Shown in pieces: positions 7,881-60,603 of a stretch of 64,000 nucleotides of DNA; within the stretch, counting starts at the first letter, position 1; each line of letters starts with the position of its first letter. The notes beneath the pieces are model-generated. The model saw only the letters and a program-made list of their open reading frames with translations, searched no databases and was not told the origin of the DNA. The translations under genes were made by a program, and so were the position numbers. Location: NCBI RefSeq assembly GCF_055900595.2, contig NZ_CM148325.1. One strand, given 5' to 3'.

Positions 7881-9203
7881 TTATAACCGATGAAATTTTG
7901 CCAGTAAGGCCAGTGAAAATGTTGTCAGCAAAATGGTAATGACTGCGTAAATATACACTCCTGACCATTCCCAACTGTTTTTCACCATAATAACTGGAAG
8001 CCCTGCCATTGCCGCGCCTAAATAACTAAACAAGCCCCTGAATCCAGTAATGGAACCTGCCGCATCTTTATGCGTAACATCAAGACACCCGACAGCGAAT
8101 AACATATGCGGTCCATACAATGCAAACCCCATGATTGTAAACAGAATAGCCGTTAATGTGTAGGAGACGTCCTGCACCAGCGGTACGAGAACGATGCAAA
8201 TACATAAAGCGATGGCAAAGATTAATCCTGTCATCCAGCGGTTACTTTTAAACATGAAATCGGACAAGTACCCCGCCAGTAATCCCCCAGCAAGTCCACC
8301 TGCTTCAAACCAGGATATAATGGAGTTCGCTTTAATCAGGCTCCAGTTATGAACCTGAGAATAATAAATTTGTGGCCAGTCATTGAGGATGGTGCGTGCA
8401 ATATAGACCGACATATCCCCGAGGATAATGAGCCAAACTAATGGGTTGGTAAGAATATATTTAACGAATATTTGCCAAAAACTGAGATCAACCGGACTTG
8501 CTTTAACTTGTGCAAGTTCTGTCGGGTCGTTGCGCCACTTACCGACGTTAGGCAAACCGAGCGTGCTGGGACGATCTTTTATCGTAAATAAGGCAACAAT
8601 CCCCATAATCAGTGAGATTACACCCGGAACATAAAAGCCCATCTTCCAGCTGCCACTAAAAGCAATAGCAAAGCTTGTCAGGAGAGGCGCAAGACTACCG
8701 CCAATATTATGCGCAGCTTCAACAACTGCCCACCAGCGTCCGCGTTCATTTTTCGAGAACCACGAGGCCATAATTTTTGCCATTGGCGGAAAACTGGTAC
8801 CCTGGAGAATAGCATTAAGGCTATACAGGATATAGAACGCAGCAACGCTGTCTGAAAAACCGAAAAGAATGTTAACAATACCGACGCCAATAAGTACGGG
8901 GCCAGTCATCGCTCGTGGGTTAATTTTATCGACTAACATGCCACCTACAAACTTCATGGAGCCATAAAGAATGTAAAAGACCGACGACATGATAGCGAAA
9001 TCTTGTGCGGTTAATGACGTATCCGTTAACATCGCTGGCATGGCCGCAGAGAAATTCTTGCGGGTTAAGTAAAATACGGCATAAGAGATAAATACAGAGG
9101 TGATGATTTCAATGCGAAATTTTTTATAAGTATGATCAACTTCTTCTTTTGGTTTGACCACCGGTTGGTCGGCCTGGCTGAAAATAAATTTTTTCAAACT
9201 CAT
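7881..9203 (-). CDS. MFS transporter of the organophosphate:Pi antiporter family (GlpT/UhpT/PgtP-like)
   Basis: 440 aa; N-terminal DHTYKKFRIEIITSVFISYAVFYLTRKNFSAAMP and WFSKNERGRWWAVVEAAHNIGGSLAPLL align by eye with the recalled GlpT sequence; not part of K-12 cirA-yeiG interval. Confidence 0.75.
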   Translation of the reverse strand: MSLKKFIFSQADQPVVKPKEEVDHTYKKFRIEIITSVFISYAVFYLTRKNFSAAMPAMLTDTSLTAQDFAIMSSVFYILYGSMKFVGGMLVDKINPRAMTGPVLIGVGIVNILFGFSDSVAAFYILYSLNAILQGTSFPPMAKIMASWFSKNERGRWWAVVEAAHNIGGSLAPLLTSFAIAFSGSWKMGFYVPGVISLIMGIVALFTIKDRPSTLGLPNVGKWRNDPTELAQVKASPVDLSFWQIFVKYILTNPLVWLIILGDMSVYIARTILNDWPQIYYSQVHNWSLIKANSIISWFEAGGLAGGLLAGYLSDFMFKSNRWMTGLIFAIALCICIVLVPLVQDVSYTLTAILFTIMGFALYGPHMLFAVGCLDVTHKDAAGSITGFRGLFSYLGAAMAGLPVIMVKNSWEWSGVYIYAVITILLTTFSLALLAKFHRL

Positions 9204-9235
9204 TGTGAGTTTCCTTTTCTGTGAACCTTATGGCG

Positions 9236-10123
9236 CTATAATTTTTCTTCTATAAAAAAGAGAAGCGACTCGAAACCATTAAAATTAATCTGGTCAGCAA
9301 TTTTTTCCCGGGTTTTAGGTTTTGCTTTCCATGCCACGCCATTTCCGGCATGCAAAAGCATAGGAATATCATTGGCACCATCTCCACAGGCAATGATGTT
9401 TTCACGGCAGATAGCTAACTCTGTCGCTAAATTTATCAGGGTTTGCTTTTTCTTTTCTGCATTCATAATAGGTAAGGTAATTGTATCAGTTAACAGATCT
9501 TCCTTAATGCGCACAGAGTTAGAAAATGCAAAATCAAGTTGATATTTTTCCTTCAATCGCTCAGTAAAAATATCCAAACCTCCAGATATAATTGCCGTCT
9601 TGAATCCTTTTTCTTTTAGTATGGGAAGAATAGTTTCAAGACCTGGTGAAAGAGTCATCTGTTCACAAACTTGATGCAATATATCTTTATGCGTTCCTTT
9701 AAGCATGGCAATTCGCCGGGTAAAACTGGTATCAAAATCGATTTTCCCTTCCATCGCTTCACGGGTCAGTGCGGTGATTTTTTCAGAGATGCCGAGTCTA
9801 CGGGCTATTTCATCGACACCTTCTTCTTCAACAAAGGTGGAATCCATATCAAAGGCAATAATTCCCTGATCCGGTAAGACCCTGGGTTTACGGAAAAAAT
9901 CAAACTGATGATTATCAGCACGGTGACGTAAACCAGCATAAAAAGCAGGGTTGGTAACATCATTTGGTAATACTAGCTTTAGATACTCTCTATTTATTTG
10001 CCTACTGTAATTCGTTGTTAGCGAAAACACCGAGGGGGAAATCTTTAAATGTTGCAGATAATCTTTCAGACATTTTTGGGTGATGTCGATGCCTGTTGGC
10101 GACAAGAAATAAATAATCGTCAT
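9236..10123 (-). CDS. HAD-superfamily phosphatase, SerB-like (phosphoserine phosphatase family)
   Basis: 295 aa; HAD motifs FDMDSTF (DxDST), ISGG, GDGANDIPML in SerB-like order; upstream of and likely co-transcribed with the transporter. Confidence 0.75.
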   Translation of the reverse strand: MTIIYFLSPTGIDITQKCLKDYLQHLKISPSVFSLTTNYSRQINREYLKLVLPNDVTNPAFYAGLRHRADNHQFDFFRKPRVLPDQGIIAFDMDSTFVEEEGVDEIARRLGISEKITALTREAMEGKIDFDTSFTRRIAMLKGTHKDILHQVCEQMTLSPGLETILPILKEKGFKTAIISGGLDIFTERLKEKYQLDFAFSNSVRIKEDLLTDTITLPIMNAEKKKQTLINLATELAICRENIIACGDGANDIPMLLHAGNGVAWKAKPKTREKIADQINFNGFESLLFFIEEKL

Positions 10124-10222
10124 TTACCGCTCCTTTTTATCTGCAATGATTATAATAAGATTTCGTAGAAGCTGATGTATCTGACAATCACAGTTGTGAA
10201 TGTTAAATAAAAGATAAAAAAG

Positions 10223-10276
10223 TACTTTTTTGATACTTTGAAATAATAAGATACTAAAAGTACCATTTTTGATATC
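10223..10276. promoter_or_regulatory. Two direct repeats GTAC(N1-2)TTTTTGATA(C/T) in divergent promoter of the islet (candidate operator)
   Basis: GTACTTTTTTGATAC at 10223-10237 and GTACCATTTTTGATATC at 10260-10276; AT-rich 209 bp intergenic region. Confidence 0.4.
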
Positions 10277-10332
10277 TTTACCAGGATATAAAGAATAACT
10301 ATTTTTCAACGTTGAAGGAATCATTTACAAAT

Positions 10333-11685
10333 ATGGAAAGCTGCATAGATATATTCAAGATAGTTATTGGTCCATCCAGTTCCCGCACAGTCGGGCCAAT
10401 GCGTGCGGCTTATAATTTTGTGTCACAATTGAAACAGCAAGAAATGTTACCTTTGTTGCGGAAAATTGATGTCGAACTTTATGGTGCGCTGTCATTAAGC
10501 CGCAAGTGCCATAATGTTGATGTGGCGATTTATCTCGGTTTGCAAGGACACTTACCTGACAGCGTTGACATTCGCATGGAAATGTCCGCCATCAGGCGTG
10601 CAGAAACTGAGGCGACGCTGGAAGTTATGCCTGGTGTCAACGTCAGTGTATCCATTCTTTCTAATCTACAAGCGCATCCGGGGCACCCTTATGCGATGAC
10701 ATTTCGTGCCAGAGATGACTGGTTTACACTTTATGAAGAAACCTGGTTTTCTATCGGCGACGGTCAAGTGCTAAAAGCAGGAGAGGCGATTATTCCTCCA
10801 TCAGTCACTCCACATCCTTTTGAATTCCAGAACGCAAACGAATTATTAAAACTTTGTCAGCAAAACGGATTATCTGTCGCGGCATTAATGATGAAAAACG
10901 AACTGCACTGCCAGACAGCAGCTTTTTTGCATGACGATCTTCATAAAAAATGGGAAGTAATGAAGGAGGCGGTTTATCGCGGGATGCATACAGAAGGATT
11001 ACTTCCAGGTCCGTTTCAGGTTAACCGTCGTGCCTGTGCTTTATATAAATCGTTGCAGTCAAAGGGGTTTTCCAATGACTTCCTGACTACGCTCAATTGG
11101 GTCAATACTTTTGCCATTGCGGTGAGCGAAGAAAATGCTGCGGGTGGACGTGTCGTGACAGCACCCACCAACGGCGCGAGCGGTATTATCCCGGCTGTAC
11201 TGTGCTGGTATGATAAATTCATTCACGAGCTTGATACATACTCCGTTACCCGCTTTTTACTGACCGCTGGTGCCATCGCCATTCTGTTCAAAAAAAATGC
11301 CTCTATTCTGGGTTCTGAAGTTGGATGTCAGGGGGAAATAGGTGTTGCCAGTTCAATGGCGGCAGCAGGATTAGCAGAACTTATGGGCGGGTCAGTGGCT
11401 CAGGTACTTAGCGCGGCAGAAATTGCGATGGAGCATCATTTAGGTTTGACCTGTGATCCAGTTGGCGGGCAGGTACAAATTCCTTGTATTGAACGAAATG
11501 CTATTTCAGCTGTGAAAGCTATCAACGCAACGACGATGGCGTTGAGTCGCATAAGCGAGCCGTGCATTACGCTGGATGAGATAATTTCCGCGATGTATGA
11601 AACCGGAAAGGATATGAGCGCTAAATACCGTGAAACTTATCATGGCTGTCTGAGCAAATTGCAGCCAAGAAAAAAGGATGCGTAA
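10333..11685 (+). CDS. L-serine dehydratase-like protein (single-chain Fe-S type, SdaA/SdaB/TdcG family)
   Basis: ORF track begins at TTG 10312; ATG at 10333 gives [23 protein letters not shown] matching recalled SdaA N-terminus [23 protein letters not shown]; about 450 aa. Confidence 0.8.
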
Positions 11686-52686: not shown

Positions 52687-55051
52687 TTACTCAAGCAAGG
52701 TTAATAATTGTTCGCAAAGCAAAACGCAGTTATTCATTGCATCTCCCCGTGCCTCGCCTTCTGTATTACGAAATTGTCCCAACACATGTGCCAGCCGATA
52801 AAAACCCACCGCAGTGAGGTCATTCGCCAGCAACTCTGCCTGACCAATAGCACTCTGTTCCTGATAGCGCCAGCCGTTATGGAGCAGTTGAATAAGTAAC
52901 GCCTGGCAGCGCATCAGCAACTGATGAGCGGTAGACGGCACAGGCAAAACGCTGGCAGAAGGTAGCGGTGCCACAGGCGCAGTTTCTGCGTCCAGCGCCC
53001 AGGCGAGGGTTTGCGTCATCATTACTCGTGGTTCCAGTGTCAATTGCCCCTCAGCAAAATTGATAAACCCAGAAACCAGACTAACGGGATCTTCTGTTTG
53101 TTGTAACAGAGCTGCCATGCGTTCAACAGCAAAGGGCGCACTGGCTGAAGCTGGCAGTGATAACGTCAGCACATTATCTTCACCTTCGCCACTGATTACC
53201 TGCGCATTCTGCTTTCAGCGCGGGGAAATCGAAACGTAACAGGGCCTCAACTGCGCTTTGTGGCATTATTTTTTTTTCGTATTGTTCTTCTCCGGTTCTG
53301 CTCCATTCCTTAAACCCCAGTAGCCAAAGGATTTGCTGTTCTGGCGTTAAAGGGATGAAAGACGTTTCCCAGCTTTCCTTTTCAATTAGTGGCAGATCGG
53401 TAAATAAGGTTTGCTGTGATGCCTGATATTTCGCGATTTCACTGAATCTGGATATGTCAGTGTGACTGATTAACTCTGTAATTCCAGGTGTGATGTCAGT
53501 GACGGAAGGGATGGGAAGTACCGGTAAATCAAATACGGGTATTACATTCTTTTTCTTATTTATTGCCCACGGTGGAGCGACAAGCAGCTCTGGCAACATA
53601 TCCGCAGTGGCATACTCACATTCTTCAGCGACTGACTGAGGACGACATTCAGATAATATGCCTGCCGCCTTAGCATTAACCCAGGGAATGACGTCGCATA
53701 CTAACTCTGGCGTGACGGTAACCAGTTTGACAAGCGCGTTGCGCCACTGTGCGTCTTCATGTATTGCCAGCAAAGTTGCATAAGCGGCAATAGCCGCAGC
53801 GGGATGTTTTTGGCAGGCTTTGCTTAAGTATTCCAGGTGCTTTTTCTTGCTATTTACACCGAGGATCAGAATTTGAATCGCATCCGGGTGATTCGTTTTC
53901 CATAGCCATTTGACAAGATCTTCAGTCTCGCTGATGCGCTCGAAGAGATAAGTGGGATTGTCAGAATGCTCTTCCACAAACTCAGTAAGTATCCGGCTTA
54001 CACCGCGCACGCCATTATTCGCCAGCAACATTGCCAGATAAGCGCGAAAATCACGATGCAATGGTGGGAAGTCGTATTTTTCGGTTGTAGTGGGAGCAGC
54101 GTCATTGGTTACCACCAGTCTTAACCAGGTCATCGCAGGGACGTTTTGATCTGCATAATGTAGCGCCATAGCATTGGCAATATCCGGGCGTTCAGGGATC
54201 AGTAATGCAGCAAAAGGTTGCCGTGCGGGGGATAGCGTCGGAATAGCAGTAAGCACTTTATCCACACAGCGTTGCCACTCATCTTCTGAAGCGAGTGAAA
54301 GATGATGACATAGACGTTGATGCCAACTCGGTAGCGATTCTGCTTCGTGATTAGGTGGAATGATGGTGGTTACTGCGCCTTTTACTGGTTTATATTTGAG
54401 TTGAAGAGCGAGAAGGGCGATTTCAACGGCACTTTCCAGACCACAGCGAATGACTAAGTCATCGACCAGTTCATCTTGAGAGTAAGAGTTCCAAAAGCCC
54501 CAGAGCAATGCTGCATCAGATTGCGCACTCCCTGTCGGTTGATTACCCTGAACTCGCATTTGTAACTCAGCAAAAGCCTGCTGCCAGTTTTCTGGATAAG
54601 AGCGGTAATTATTGTCGGGGTCATATGCCCTCGTGTTATTCGCGATGCGCTTCCATATTTGGCCATCTTTGTGCAGATAATTGATATCTCTGGGGCGAGA
54701 GCGATGTGGAAAAGCAAATCGGTTAATATCGTCGGTTAGCGGAATGGCTGCATCATCAGCCAGCCATGGGCGTTTGTTTTTACTCTCAGGTGAAGTTTCA
54801 ACTTCAGGAGTGACTTTGGTGACGGGGGGGATATGTACGTTTGCCGAAGCGTCTTCCACATAGCCTTTTTTCGTTTTCTCAGCGATAAGCTTCAGTTCCG
54901 CTTTTTCCGCCGCCGCAGCATCCGCAAAGCTTTTTATCTGGCTTTGCCCTTGGGTGCCAACTTTTCCCCAACTGATATGCAACTCGTTACCTTGCTGCCC
55001 CACCGCCCAGAATTTATGCGATTTTTCGTCCTGATAGATATAACTCTTCAT
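52687..55051 (-). pseudogene. molR/yehQ-like gene with N-terminal WGR domain, split into 623 aa and 161 aa ORFs by an apparent +1 frameshift near 53173-53205
   Basis: N-terminus SHKFWAVGQQGNELHISWGKVGTQGQ is WGR-like; two same-strand ORFs overlap in different frames with a 30 nt window where a single indel would fuse them. Confidence 0.55.
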
Positions 55052-57356: not shown

Positions 57357-58466
57357 ATGAACGAACAATCCCAGGCCAAATCACCAGAAGCCTTGCGCGC
57401 AATGGTCGCCGGGACACTGGCCAATTTTCAGCACCCAACCCTGAAGCATAACCTCACCACGCTGAAAGCGTTGCACCATGTCGCCTGGATGGACGACACG
57501 TTGCATGTGGAACTGGTTATGCCATTCGTCTGGCATAGCGCGTTCGAAGAGTTAAAAGAGCAATGTAGCGCTGAACTGCTGCGCATCACCGGGGCGAAAG
57601 CTATCGACTGGAAACTGTCGCACAATATCGCCACCTTAAAACGCGTGAAGAATCAGCCGGGAATTAACGGCGTGAAGAACATCATTGCGGTCAGCTCCGG
57701 TAAAGGCGGCGTGGGTAAATCCTCCACGGCGGTAAATCTGGCGCTGGCACTGGCGGCGGAAGGGGCGAAAGTCGGCATTCTGGACGCCGATATCTACGGC
57801 CCATCAATACCCACCATGCTGGGCGCAGAAAATCAGCGTCCAACTTCGCCGGACGGTACCCATATGGCACCGATTATGTCTCATGGACTGGCAACCAATT
57901 CAATTGGTTATCTGGTCACTGACGACAATGCGATGGTGTGGCGTGGTCCGATGGCGAGCAAGGCGTTAATGCAGATGTTGCAGGAAACCTTGTGGCCGGA
58001 TCTCGACTATCTGGTGCTTGATATGCCGCCAGGCACCGGTGACATTCAATTGACACTGGCACAAAACATTCCAGTAACTGGCGCGGTAGTGGTCACCACC
58101 CCGCAGGACATTGCGTTGATCGATGCGAAAAAAGGCATTGTGATGTTCGAGAAAGTCGAGGTTCCGGTGCTCGGTATTGTCGAGAACATGAGTGTGCATA
58201 TTTGCAGTAACTGTGGTCACCATGAACCGATTTTCGGTACCGGTGGTGCAGAGAAACTGGCCGAGAAATACCACACGCAGTTGCTGGGGCAGATGCCGTT
58301 ACACATCTCCTTACGTGAAGATCTCGATAAAGGCACGCCAACGGTTATCAGCCGTCCGGAGAGCGAATTTACTGCTATCTACCGCCAGCTGGCTGACCGC
58401 GTTGCAGCCCAGCTTTATTGGCAGGGAGAAGTCATTCCTGGCGAGATTTCCTTCCGCGCGGTCTGA
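57357..58466 (+). CDS. apbC: Fe-S cluster carrier ATPase ApbC/Mrp
   Basis: MNEQSQAKSPEALRAMV...; P-loop SGKGGVGKSS; CxxC motif. Confidence 0.93.
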   Translation: MNEQSQAKSPEALRAMVAGTLANFQHPTLKHNLTTLKALHHVAWMDDTLHVELVMPFVWHSAFEELKEQCSAELLRITGAKAIDWKLSHNIATLKRVKNQPGINGVKNIIAVSSGKGGVGKSSTAVNLALALAAEGAKVGILDADIYGPSIPTMLGAENQRPTSPDGTHMAPIMSHGLATNSIGYLVTDDNAMVWRGPMASKALMQMLQETLWPDLDYLVLDMPPGTGDIQLTLAQNIPVTGAVVVTTPQDIALIDAKKGIVMFEKVEVPVLGIVENMSVHICSNCGHHEPIFGTGGAEKLAEKYHTQLLGQMPLHISLREDLDKGTPTVISRPESEFTAIYRQLADRVAAQLYWQGEVIPGEISFRAV

Positions 58467-58496
58467 CGCGTATTAACCTTTTTGGTTGTTTTTCGT

Positions 58497-58537
58497 ACAC
58501 CGCAGAGATGTTACATTGATGCGGTGTATTTGTTTTT
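58497..58537 (+). terminator. Rho-independent terminator after apbC
   Basis: ACACCGCA-N15-TGCGGTGT followed by ATTTGTTTTT. Confidence 0.7.
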
Positions 58538-58728: not shown

Positions 58729-59010
58729 ATGAATAAGTACTGGCTGTCAGGAATTATTTTTCTTGCCTATGGAATGGCTTCTCCCGCGTTCTCTTTACAG
58801 ACTGCCACATTAACGATTAATGGCAGGATCAGTCCCCCAACATGCAGTATGGCAATGGTTAATGGTCAACCTCAACAGCATTGTGGTCAGTTAACGTATA
58901 ATGTTGATACTCGTCATCAGGTTTCTTCGCCAGTTAAAGGTGTGACGACAGAAGTGGTTGTTGCAGGTAGTGATAGCAAACGTCGAATCGTGTTAAATCG
59001 CTACGATTAA
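58729..59010 (+). CDS. yehE: DUF2574 small secreted protein YehE
   Basis: 93 aa with signal peptide MNKYWLSGIIFLAYGMASPAFS. Confidence 0.8.
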   Translation: MNKYWLSGIIFLAYGMASPAFSLQTATLTINGRISPPTCSMAMVNGQPQQHCGQLTYNVDTRHQVSSPVKGVTTEVVVAGSDSKRRIVLNRYD

Positions 59011-59305
59011 TTTGCCACCCTGGTTTTTTAAGCGGATTTAGAAAGCTGAAATCATTCGTGTGAATGATTTAAGCTTTTTTATTGATATTAATAATACCAT
59101 TTAAAAAAATCTGCATTAATTAATAGATGTGATAAATATTTAATATGCTTAAGTATTTGTTGTATTTATATTGCAATAGTTAATTTGTTTTAAATCAATA
59201 AAACAATATGTTTACATTGCGGCAACTTTTTTGATGTGAGAAATTTGTTTCCAAGAGATACAGACTCTTAACAACCAAAAAATAAATTTTATTAAGGAAC
59301 ATATT

Positions 59306-59848
59306 ATGAAACGTTCAATTATTGCTGCCGCTGTCTTTTCTTCTTTTTTTATGAGCGCTGGGGTATTTGCCGCAGACGTTGATACCGGAACATTAACCAT
59401 TAAAGGGAATATTGCAGAATCTCCGTGTAAATTCGAAGCGGGTGGTGATTCAGTAAGTATTAATATGCCAACTGTACCAACCACTGTCTTTGAAGGTAAA
59501 GCTAAATACTCGACCTATGATGATGCAGTCGGTGTAACCAGCAGCATGTTAAAAATTAGCTGTCCGAAAGAAGTTGCTGGTGTAAAACTCTCGTTGATTA
59601 CCAACGATAAAATAACCGGAAACGATAAGGCGATAGCCAGTAGCAACGATACCGTGGGGTACTATCTCTATTTAGGTGATAACAGCGATGTCCTGGATGT
59701 TTCTGCACCTTTTAACATTGAGAGTTATAAAACAGCGGAAGGTCAATATGCTATTCCGTTTAAAGCAAAATACCTGAAGCTGACAGATAATTCAGTGCAA
59801 TCAGGTGATGTGTTATCTTCTCTGGTTATGCGTGTGGCGCAGGATTAA
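59306..59848 (+). CDS. yehD: Fimbrial major subunit (chaperone-usher Yeh fimbriae)
   Basis: 180 aa; signal peptide MKRSIIAAAVFSSFFMSAGVFA; fimbrin-like. Confidence 0.85.
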   Translation: MKRSIIAAAVFSSFFMSAGVFAADVDTGTLTIKGNIAESPCKFEAGGDSVSINMPTVPTTVFEGKAKYSTYDDAVGVTSSMLKISCPKEVAGVKLSLITNDKITGNDKAIASSNDTVGYYLYLGDNSDVLDVSAPFNIESYKTAEGQYAIPFKAKYLKLTDNSVQSGDVLSSLVMRVAQD

Positions 59849-59884
59849 TAAATAAAATTTCAAATTTCTCCAGGTAATAAACAT

Positions 59885-59910
59885 GGCCGCTATCCCCATG
59901 GCGGCCTTTT
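59885..59910 (+). terminator. Hairpin plus T-run after yehD (attenuator before chaperone/usher genes)
   Basis: GGCCGC-N10-GCGGCC followed by TTTT. Confidence 0.6.
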
Positions 59911-59928
59911 AATTTAAGAGGCATTAAG

Positions 59929-60603
59929 ATGAAAGGATTATTAGCTTTACTCATTTCTTCTATGGTCCTTCCTGCGCATGCCGGAATTGTTATCTACGGG
60001 ACGCGCATTATTTACCCGGCAGAAAATAAAGAAGTGATGGTGCAGTTGATGAACCAGGGAAACCGTTCTTCGCTGCTGCAGGCGTGGATTGATGATGGCG
60101 ATACGTCGTTACCACCAGAAAAAATTCAGGTTCCTTTCATGTTAACGCCACCAGTGGCCAAAATAGGGGCAAATTCCGGGCAGCAAGTAAAAATCAAAAT
60201 TATGTCGAATAAACTGCCCACTAATAAAGAGAGCATTTTTTATCTGAATGTTCTGGATATTCCACCAAATAGTCCAGAGCAAGAGGGCAAGAATGCACTG
60301 AAATTTGCAATGCAAAACAGAATCAAATTGTTTTACCGGCCTGCGGGTATTGCACCGGTAAATAAAGCGACATTTAAAAAGTTACTGGTAAATCGCAGTG
60401 GCAATGGATTGGTGATAAAAAATGACTCAGCAAATTGGGTAACGATTTCGGATGTCAAAGCTAATAATGTCAAAGTCAATTATGAAACTATTATGATTGC
60501 CCCCTTAGAAAGTCAGAGTATTAATGTCAAAAGTAATAATGCGAATAACTGGTATCTGACCATTATCGATGACCATGGCAACTATATTAGTGACAAAATT
60601 TAA
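59929..60603 (+). CDS. yehC: Periplasmic fimbrial chaperone (PapD-like)
   Basis: 224 aa; signal peptide; RBS AAGAGG. Confidence 0.85.
   Translation: MKGLLALLISSMVLPAHAGIVIYGTRIIYPAENKEVMVQLMNQGNRSSLLQAWIDDGDTSLPPEKIQVPFMLTPPVAKIGANSGQQVKIKIMSNKLPTNKESIFYLNVLDIPPNSPEQEGKNALKFAMQNRIKLFYRPAGIAPVNKATFKKLLVNRSGNGLVIKNDSANWVTISDVKANNVKVNYETIMIAPLESQSINVKSNNANNWYLTIIDDHGNYISDKI

Follow-up and report, generated by a model that had tools for sequence, protein, structure and literature searches.

In the pap, fim and K99 chaperone-usher operons, the major pilin gene (papA, fimA and fanC, respectively) is followed by a stem-loop. The chaperone-usher operon yehDCBA of Escherichia coli K-12 is called cryptic and H-NS-repressed and is included in the H-NS regulon list (PMC5797941, where Korea 2010 is cited for the H-NS repression of yeh). 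In anaerobic H-NS ChIP-chip data for K-12, one region of 7,487 bp (2184205-2191692) spans yehA to yehE including the spacer between yehE and yehD (PMC3688515, Tables S3, S6 and S7), and H-NS binding at the yehD spacer is present in the Kahramanoglou and the Oshima datasets (PMC5797941, PMC3661553). The K-12 spacer is also one of 78 promoter islands (yehD/yehE, 2190229, 357 bp), that is, stretches of at least 300 bp with an exceptional density of overlapping promoter-like sites as scored by PlatProm; it is H-NS-bound in two datasets, and the upstream regions of the other K-12 chaperone-usher operons are likewise H-NS-bound promoter islands (PMC3661553). Furthermore, yehDCBA lies within an extended protein-occupancy domain, and the loss of protein occupancy alone does not induce it (PMC12266141). 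Over-expression of SlyA increased yehDCBA 3.6-fold in array data (PMC5797941), a yehD-gfp fusion gave no robust response to SlyA, and over-expression of BolA increased yehD and yehC.

Other regulators have been placed at the same DNA. An FNR site with a high predicted score (14.06) lies at K-12 yehD under the H-NS ChIP signal and gives no FNR peak in the wild type (Myers et al., 2013; PMC3688515). FNR ChIP-chip gives a peak at yehD solely in the Δhns ΔstpA strain, where the value goes from 0.10 to a significant 0.32 (PMC3688515, Tables S6 and S7); yehD is absent from Tables S8-S11 of that paper, and FNR-dependent regulation of it is not reported there. An ArcA-P box with direct repeats at 2190324, 2190335, 2190346 and 2190357 within AAGTTGCCGCAATGTAAACACATTGTTTTATTGATTTAAAACA was described in K-12 by Park et al. 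(2013; PMC3798270), together with an ArcA ChIP-seq peak at 2190299 (3.9-fold, in one of two replicates), a 5.4-fold increase of yehDCBA in the arcA mutant under anaerobic conditions (supplements of the same paper) and, as the entry for the start site of yehDCBA, "no TSS". In EHEC, CsrA binds the yehD 5′-UTR at the GGA adjoining the start codon, as seen by EMSA with a GG-to-CC control, and in EHEC 86-24 it promotes YehD expression (PMC11287998). The H-NS occupancy, the unmasking of the FNR site, the binding and repression by ArcA and the binding of CsrA are thus results obtained by others. All of these experiments concern K-12 or EHEC, and the distal spacer of the strain analysed here is ~15% different from that of K-12.

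The DNA that we analysed, hereafter the window, is a stretch of 64,000 nucleotides of an E. coli chromosome, in which the yeh locus has the gene order apbC-yehE-yehD-yehC-yehB-yehA. The spacer at 59011-59305 is the complete yehE-yehD intergenic DNA of 295 bp: position 59011 directly follows the yehE stop codon and position 59305 directly precedes the yehD ATG, so that the limits given in the initial annotation were exact. On the plus strand, yehE (58729-59010; ORF, annotated as yehE, Pfam DUF2574 with E = 7e-51) is the upstream neighbour and encodes a 93-aa protein with a signal peptide, yehD (59306-59848; ORF, annotation, Pfam Fimbrial) encodes the major fimbrial subunit, and yehC (59929-60603; ORF, annotation, Pfam) encodes a periplasmic chaperone. 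The window also holds metG on the minus strand, apbC/mrp on the plus strand with its end at 58466, yehB and the beginning of yehA. By Megablast, a 1.5-kb yeh stretch was present in 5,422 of 5,426 complete E. coli genomes, where it is always annotated as yehE, fimbrial protein YehD and chaperone YehC; only 10 genomes reach at least 99% identity to it, and K-12 stands at ~95%. With respect to the parts of the spacer defined below, the K-12 ortholog is identical to the window at 42 of 43 positions of the ArcA/FNR core, at 97% of the conserved block and at 85% of the distal part. Window positions (p) were converted to K-12 coordinates (U00096.2) as c = 2190321 + (59228 - p).

Several features of the neighbouring genes were recorded along the way. 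Just 3′ of apbC, a strong hairpin at 58495-58529 (-21.8 kcal/mol, z = -4.0), followed by TTTGTTTTT, is probably the apbC terminator, and the block that contains it is ~90% conserved across genera. YehE (DUF2574, 93 aa), conserved beside the operon in four genera and followed by a terminator of its own, is similar to the N-terminal region of YehD, the pilin: YehD residues 1-44 are matched by the DUF2574 profile as well, with E = 8e-4, under the Pfam cut-off, and a 17-nt direct repeat (88% identical) is found in yehE (58807-58823, TLTINGR) and in yehD (59390-59406, TLTIKGN). YehE may be a truncated pilin-like protein. Elsewhere in the window, an intact 623-aa ORF on the minus strand (53180-55051) has as its counterpart a frameshifted WGR-domain pseudogene in the closest genome and the fragment yehF in K-12.

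About 300 bp of very AT-rich DNA, dense in A/T tracts, had been described ahead of yehDCBA in the initial annotation, and the base composition bears this out. The spacer has a GC content of 0.241 compared to 0.501 for the whole window, the lowest of any 295-bp stretch in the 64 kb; ~0.1% of all 295-bp stretches are equally low, every one of them overlapping the yehE-yehD spacer locus, and the next-lowest value elsewhere is 0.281 (10039-10333). TpA steps are 2.3 times as frequent as the window average, and there are nine A/T-only runs of at least 8 bases. Homopolymer A or T tracts of at least 4 bases number 8, which is high and not extreme, as 4% of stretches of this length have as many. The A+T content is far above average over at least 200 bp, as expected of promoters silenced by H-NS/StpA. 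The second most AT-rich stretch of the window (9000-10600) belongs to an accessory segment that just 89 of 5,426 E. coli genomes carry, with genes annotated as a serB-like phosphoserine phosphatase, an L-serine ammonia-lyase and an MFS transporter.

For the comparative analysis, one genome per species was scanned with a YehC query, which gave 24 usable syntenic loci, all arranged as (apbC-)yehE-pilin-chaperone, in Escherichia, Salmonella, Citrobacter and Superficieibacter. The length of the spacer (~272-319 bp) and its AT-richness (GC 0.24-0.32) are kept in all 24, where the nearby apbC has a GC content of 0.53-0.57. The alignment and the conservation profile divided the spacer into four parts, namely a terminator, a distal segment, a conserved block and a leader.

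The terminator is the Rho-independent terminator of yehE (59040-59083, plus strand), which consists of a hairpin at 59040-59079 (core 59044-59075) and a T6 run at 59075-59080. Its folding energy is -17.1 kcal/mol (z = -5.4; none of 200 shuffles was as stable), and among the 24 sequences both-side changes were found in 10 of 17 pairs with 45 compensated cells, a level reached by none of 500 shuffles. Moreover, 86% of cells were paired, compared to 38-51% when the partners were slid, and two compensatory changes distinguish the window from K-12. A stable hairpin with a U-run and compensatory change, the marks of a Rho-independent terminator, are both present at 59040-59083; the scan had overlooked it, as the stem contains a mismatch. 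The segment is the terminator of yehE and not regulatory DNA of yehD. The view of the whole spacer as yehD regulatory DNA, taken in the initial annotation, consequently has to be given up for the first ~73 bp, which hold the yehE 3′ end and this terminator, and stands for the remainder.

The distal AT-rich segment (59084-59155) keeps its composition and not its sequence, which is 39-57% identical to that of the other genera, and it is a candidate for H-NS loading or for flexible DNA. The H-NS high-affinity motif TCGATAAATT is not enriched in the window (76 matches with up to 2 mismatches versus 69 expected), and only two matches touch the spacer, each with 2 mismatches. A high-affinity nucleation motif is not obligatory for H-NS binding. 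The reading of the spacer as an H-NS-silenced cryptic fimbrial promoter, which the initial annotation had put forward, is supported because experiments have been published on the K-12 ortholog, in which the H-NS ChIP region, the promoter island and the FNR site unmasked in Δhns ΔstpA all agree with it.

The next part, the cis-regulatory block at 59156-59244, is 74-87% identical to Salmonella, Citrobacter and Superficieibacter, over the same distances at which the third codon positions of yehC are saturated (36-45% identity). Within it, the columns of a core at 59185-59228 are at least 90% conserved in the 24 loci of the four genera. Judging from this comparison, the ~90-bp block is under strong purifying selection. 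These data bear on the idea that the AT-richness is a leftover of a horizontally acquired low-GC island, to which H-NS would bind non-specifically and in which no specific regulatory sites would exist. The entire yeh cluster is indeed low in GC (0.37-0.46, compared to 0.53-0.55 for apbC), the sequence of the distal 72 bp is not conserved and no H-NS nucleation motif is enriched; however, the core is conserved at 90% or more over four genera while synonymous sites are saturated, and it coincides at base level with experimentally supported ArcA and FNR sites. Furthermore, synteny of the locus extends over Escherichia, Salmonella and Citrobacter, which indicates that it is old and not recently acquired. 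Conservation largely refutes the leftover explanation, and we regard it as very unlikely.

The core carries an FNR-type site and an ArcA operator. The FNR-type site TTGTTTTAAATCAA (59185-59198) matches the palindrome TTGAT-N4-ATCAA at 9 of 10 positions (TTGTT-TTAA-ATCAA) and is the left part of a longer palindrome, TTGTTTTA-N6-TAAAACAA (59185-59206); its reverse complement is the published predicted FNR site of K-12, TTGATTTAAAACAA at 2190351 (PMC3688515), and its TTG-N8-CAA is present in 24 of 24 orthologs. The ArcA-P box (59186-59228, minus strand) has four direct repeats with 11-bp phasing, where at least two TGTTA-like repeats at 11 bp centre-to-centre define an ArcA-P operator. It shares 42 of 43 bases with the K-12 ArcA site at 2190321-2190363: but for one substitution, AAGTTGCCGCAATGTAAACACATTGTTTTATTGATTTAAAACA is the reverse complement of window 59186-59228. 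The strongest repeats, DR2 (TGTAA, 59212-59216) and DR3 (TGTTT, 59201-59205), are invariant in all 24 orthologs.

The closest genome (E. coli E400634, locus L001, 99.7% identical) has a 3-bp deletion in this otherwise invariant core, at about 6725-6735 of L001, which aligns to window 59197-59200. The deletion leaves the FNR half-sites in place, alters the DR3-DR4 spacing and moves the FNR site by 3 bp relative to the promoter predicted below; it could be a natural regulatory variant.

At the end of the conserved block, the sequence suggests a weak TG-extended sigma-70 promoter (59217-59245, plus strand) with a -35 TTGCGG (59217-59222), a 17-bp spacer, a TG (59237-59238) and a -10 GAAATT (59240-59245), from which transcription would start at ~59252-59254. 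Although the match is weak, with 3 of 6 bases in each hexamer plus the TG, it was the sole promoter-like site that a PWM scan with an AT-rich background found at one and the same alignment position in 23 of the 24 orthologs. Counted from the predicted start, the ArcA repeats would extend from about -63 to -26 and the centre of the FNR site (59191.5) would be at -61.5, a class I position. In the K-12 wild type there is no sigma-70 ChIP peak at the yehD promoter, the nearest one lying in the 5′ part of yehE at 2190736 (PMC3688515); this fits a weak, occluded promoter, without being proof of one.

Other candidates in the spacer were rejected. The single promoter-like match of the consensus scan (59082-59110) is not conserved in the orthologs, and each of the other placements considered, with TATATT (59167-59172), with TTTACA as a -35 or with FNR at -41.5, had no partner element at a proper distance or none that recurred in the orthologs. 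Three small ORFs of 20-90 aa on the minus strand of the spacer are supported by nothing.

The same sigma-70 data, in which the ChIP-seq peak lies near the yehE 5′ end and none is seen at yehD, could be taken to mean that yehEDCBA, as the unit is named in one paper, is a single operon. The spacer would then be an internal untranslated region, the hairpin would only attenuate read-through, and yehD would have no promoter of its own. Such an arrangement is hard to reconcile with the covariation-supported hairpin and T6 directly after yehE, with the ArcA operator and FNR site lying 80-120 bp upstream of yehD next to a promoter-like element found in 23 of 24 orthologs, and with the complementation of a deletion by a plasmid carrying yehD-yehA with the "native promoter" (Z3276-Z3279; PMC11287998). 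We consider a single operon unlikely; partial read-through from yehE could occur alongside a yehD promoter.

The leader (59245-59305) contains a near-invariant AAGGAA at 59294-59299 (plus strand), which is the Shine-Dalgarno sequence and the published CsrA GGA site. With the predicted start, a leader of ~53 nt would begin with a possible 5′-terminal hairpin, AAGAG-N7-CTCTT (59253-59269, plus strand), whose support is weak: 89% of cells were paired, compared to 42-60% when slid, and both-side changes occurred in 3 pairs.

This hairpin, which is mostly maintained, and the rank of 21st given to K-12 2190295-2190394 in a computational structural-entropy screen (PMC4448311) would be in line with the conserved block being a structured RNA leader or a riboswitch-like element. 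Yet RNAalifold on the last 150 nt before yehD in the 24 sequences gave -1.78 kcal/mol with essentially no covariation, and this lack of conserved RNA structure argues that the block is conserved at the DNA level. In addition, it is the primary sequence that is conserved, matching the protein-binding sites, and most of the segment flagged by the screen would lie upstream of the predicted start. With no Rfam match at E up to 1 and no conserved covarying structure, a known RNA family or riboswitch was rejected for the spacer, and an RNA element of this kind is highly improbable.

Many fimbrial operons are phase-variable, and we also considered that the spacer might switch phase, by inversion as fimS does or through Dam/Lrp methylation as in pap. 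An imperfect inverted repeat (59077-59091 and 59189-59203, 87% complementary) does bracket 97 bp of the spacer, but its left arm is not conserved in other species, and such repeats are expected by chance in DNA of 76% A+T. Conserved flanking repeats, an adjacent recombinase gene and GATC sites, of which there are zero in 59011-59305, are what the fimS- and pap-type switches have and this locus, searched over the spacer and the adjacent genes, does not. We rejected the invertible element and the Dam switch, and a switch of either type is extremely improbable here.

Downstream of yehD, the initial annotation had reported a hairpin attenuator. The hairpin exists: a GC-rich intercistronic stem-loop with the tail TTTTAATTTA is found at 59885-59916 (plus strand), with a stem at 59885-59906 of 9 pairs (6 of them G-C), a loop of 4 and a stability of -15.7 kcal/mol (z = -2.2). 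GC-rich hairpins of differing sequence, with 6-13 pairs, occupy the pilin-chaperone spacer of 24 of 24 orthologs (mean z = -3.3; 21 of 24 below -2). The T-rich tail is present in E. coli and absent from the E. albertii, E. whittamii, E1V33 and MOD1-EC7003 loci, and RT-PCR in EHEC showed the yeh locus to be a single transcript across the operon junctions (PMC11287998). Since the hairpin is kept in all orthologs while the tail has been lost in some and the EHEC operon is one transcript, the hairpin itself is the selected feature. For the same two reasons, the variable tail and the co-transcription, its function as an attenuator is plausible only; partial termination and stabilisation of the 3′ end of the yehD transcript are both plausible.

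The annotated start of yehC differs among genomes at this place. In K-12 (L002, 4927-5646), yehC is annotated with 239 aa from an ATG within the post-yehD hairpin, whereas RefSeq PGAP genomes use the start of a 224-aa product, which corresponds to window 59929. In the window (59883-59931), the hairpin loop is one C longer, which shifts the frame of the upstream ATG and makes it run into a stop codon; the 239-aa start of K-12 is therefore probably an over-extension.

In the syntenic loci L008-L036, most of the Salmonella and Citrobacter pilins have only 27-39% identity to the YehD of the window (59306-59848). Identity of the chaperone is 56-71%, and hardly any change is seen in the signal peptide or the upstream operator. 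Such a pattern suggests that the mature pilin has been under diversifying selection or has been replaced as a cassette.

Taken together, we propose that the spacer is very likely a composite control region of the cryptic yehDCBA chaperone-usher operon under H-NS/StpA. The 5′ quarter holds the yehE 3′ end and the Rho-independent terminator that separates yehE from yehD, and the AT-rich rest would lie within an H-NS/StpA filament that extends for several kilobases along the low-GC yeh cluster and excludes RNA polymerase and site-specific regulators. In the ~90-bp conserved block, the four-repeat ArcA-P operator overlaps the FNR-type site and the -35 of the predicted weak TG-extended sigma-70 promoter, with ArcA-P repressing anaerobically by covering the -35 and the region upstream, and with FNR binding only once H-NS is removed. 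CsrA binds the ribosome-binding site in the predicted ~53-nt leader, and the GC-rich hairpin after yehD most likely would lower or stabilise transcripts, leading to an excess of pilin over chaperone, usher and adhesin. Silencing is not by H-NS alone, as ArcA, the masked FNR site and CsrA also act at the spacer.

The overlapping FNR and ArcA sites, invariant in four genera in which the pilin has diverged to ~30% identity, lead us to a tentative and rather doubtful suggestion, that Yeh/Stc-type fimbriae are controlled by an ancient oxygen gate made up of these sites, where FNR at about -61.5 would activate the weak TG-extended promoter, ArcA-P would compete with FNR for the DNA that both sites share and H-NS would be the master lock. 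If this were true, the fimbriae would be made only in a narrow redox window, e.g., near the gut epithelium. A literature search on the regulation of Salmonella stcA gave nothing useful. Yeh fimbriae are encoded in almost all E. coli (5,422 of 5,426 genomes), are silent in the laboratory and affect virulence gene expression in EHEC (PMC11287998). The dissection of the spacer into terminator, non-specific H-NS stretch, ArcA/FNR operator and candidate promoter points to the bases to mutate in the search for the condition that naturally induces the operon.

The feature is real, was rightly interpreted and is already described in the literature for K-12, and the mechanism is of a known kind; the contribution made here is incremental comparative detail. 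It consists of the subdivision of the spacer with its base composition, the covariation of the yehE terminator, the finding that the ArcA/FNR core is conserved across genera at the DNA level, the candidate promoter and the comparison of the post-pilin hairpins. With pap (papA), fim (fimA) and K99 (fanC), yeh shares a GC-rich stem-loop that immediately follows the major subunit gene and precedes those of the chaperone and usher; it differs in that the T-rich tail is missing in several Escherichia species and in that the EHEC operon is one transcript across the junctions. With the promoter islands of the cryptic K-12 chaperone-usher operons (sfmA, yadN, ybgD, elfA, yfcV, yraH and fimA; Panyukov and Ozoline, 2013), the yehD spacer shares its AT-richness, its transcriptional silence and its place in a low-GC cluster. 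Unlike those islands, it has no enrichment of promoter-like sites in a simple consensus scan (2 versus 5.4 in shuffled sequence, where the island definition rests on PlatProm), and part of the yehD/yehE "island" is actually the yehE terminator.

Myers et al. (2013) described silent FNR sites, such as those at hlyE and fimE, that are covered by extended H-NS regions, and the one they list for yehD is identical to the site at 59185-59198. In contrast to hlyE, no O2-dependent change of expression is reported for yehD after unmasking; the yehD site also overlaps an ArcA operator. As in the multi-repeat ArcA-P operators over sigma-70 promoters described by Park et al. (2013), yehD has four repeats at 11 bp and anaerobic repression, and, if the predicted yehD promoter is right, the repeats span the -35 and the region upstream. 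The yehD operator differs from the others of that study in having a ChIP peak in one replicate and the entry "no TSS"; its conservation across genera, which lay outside that study, is shown here.
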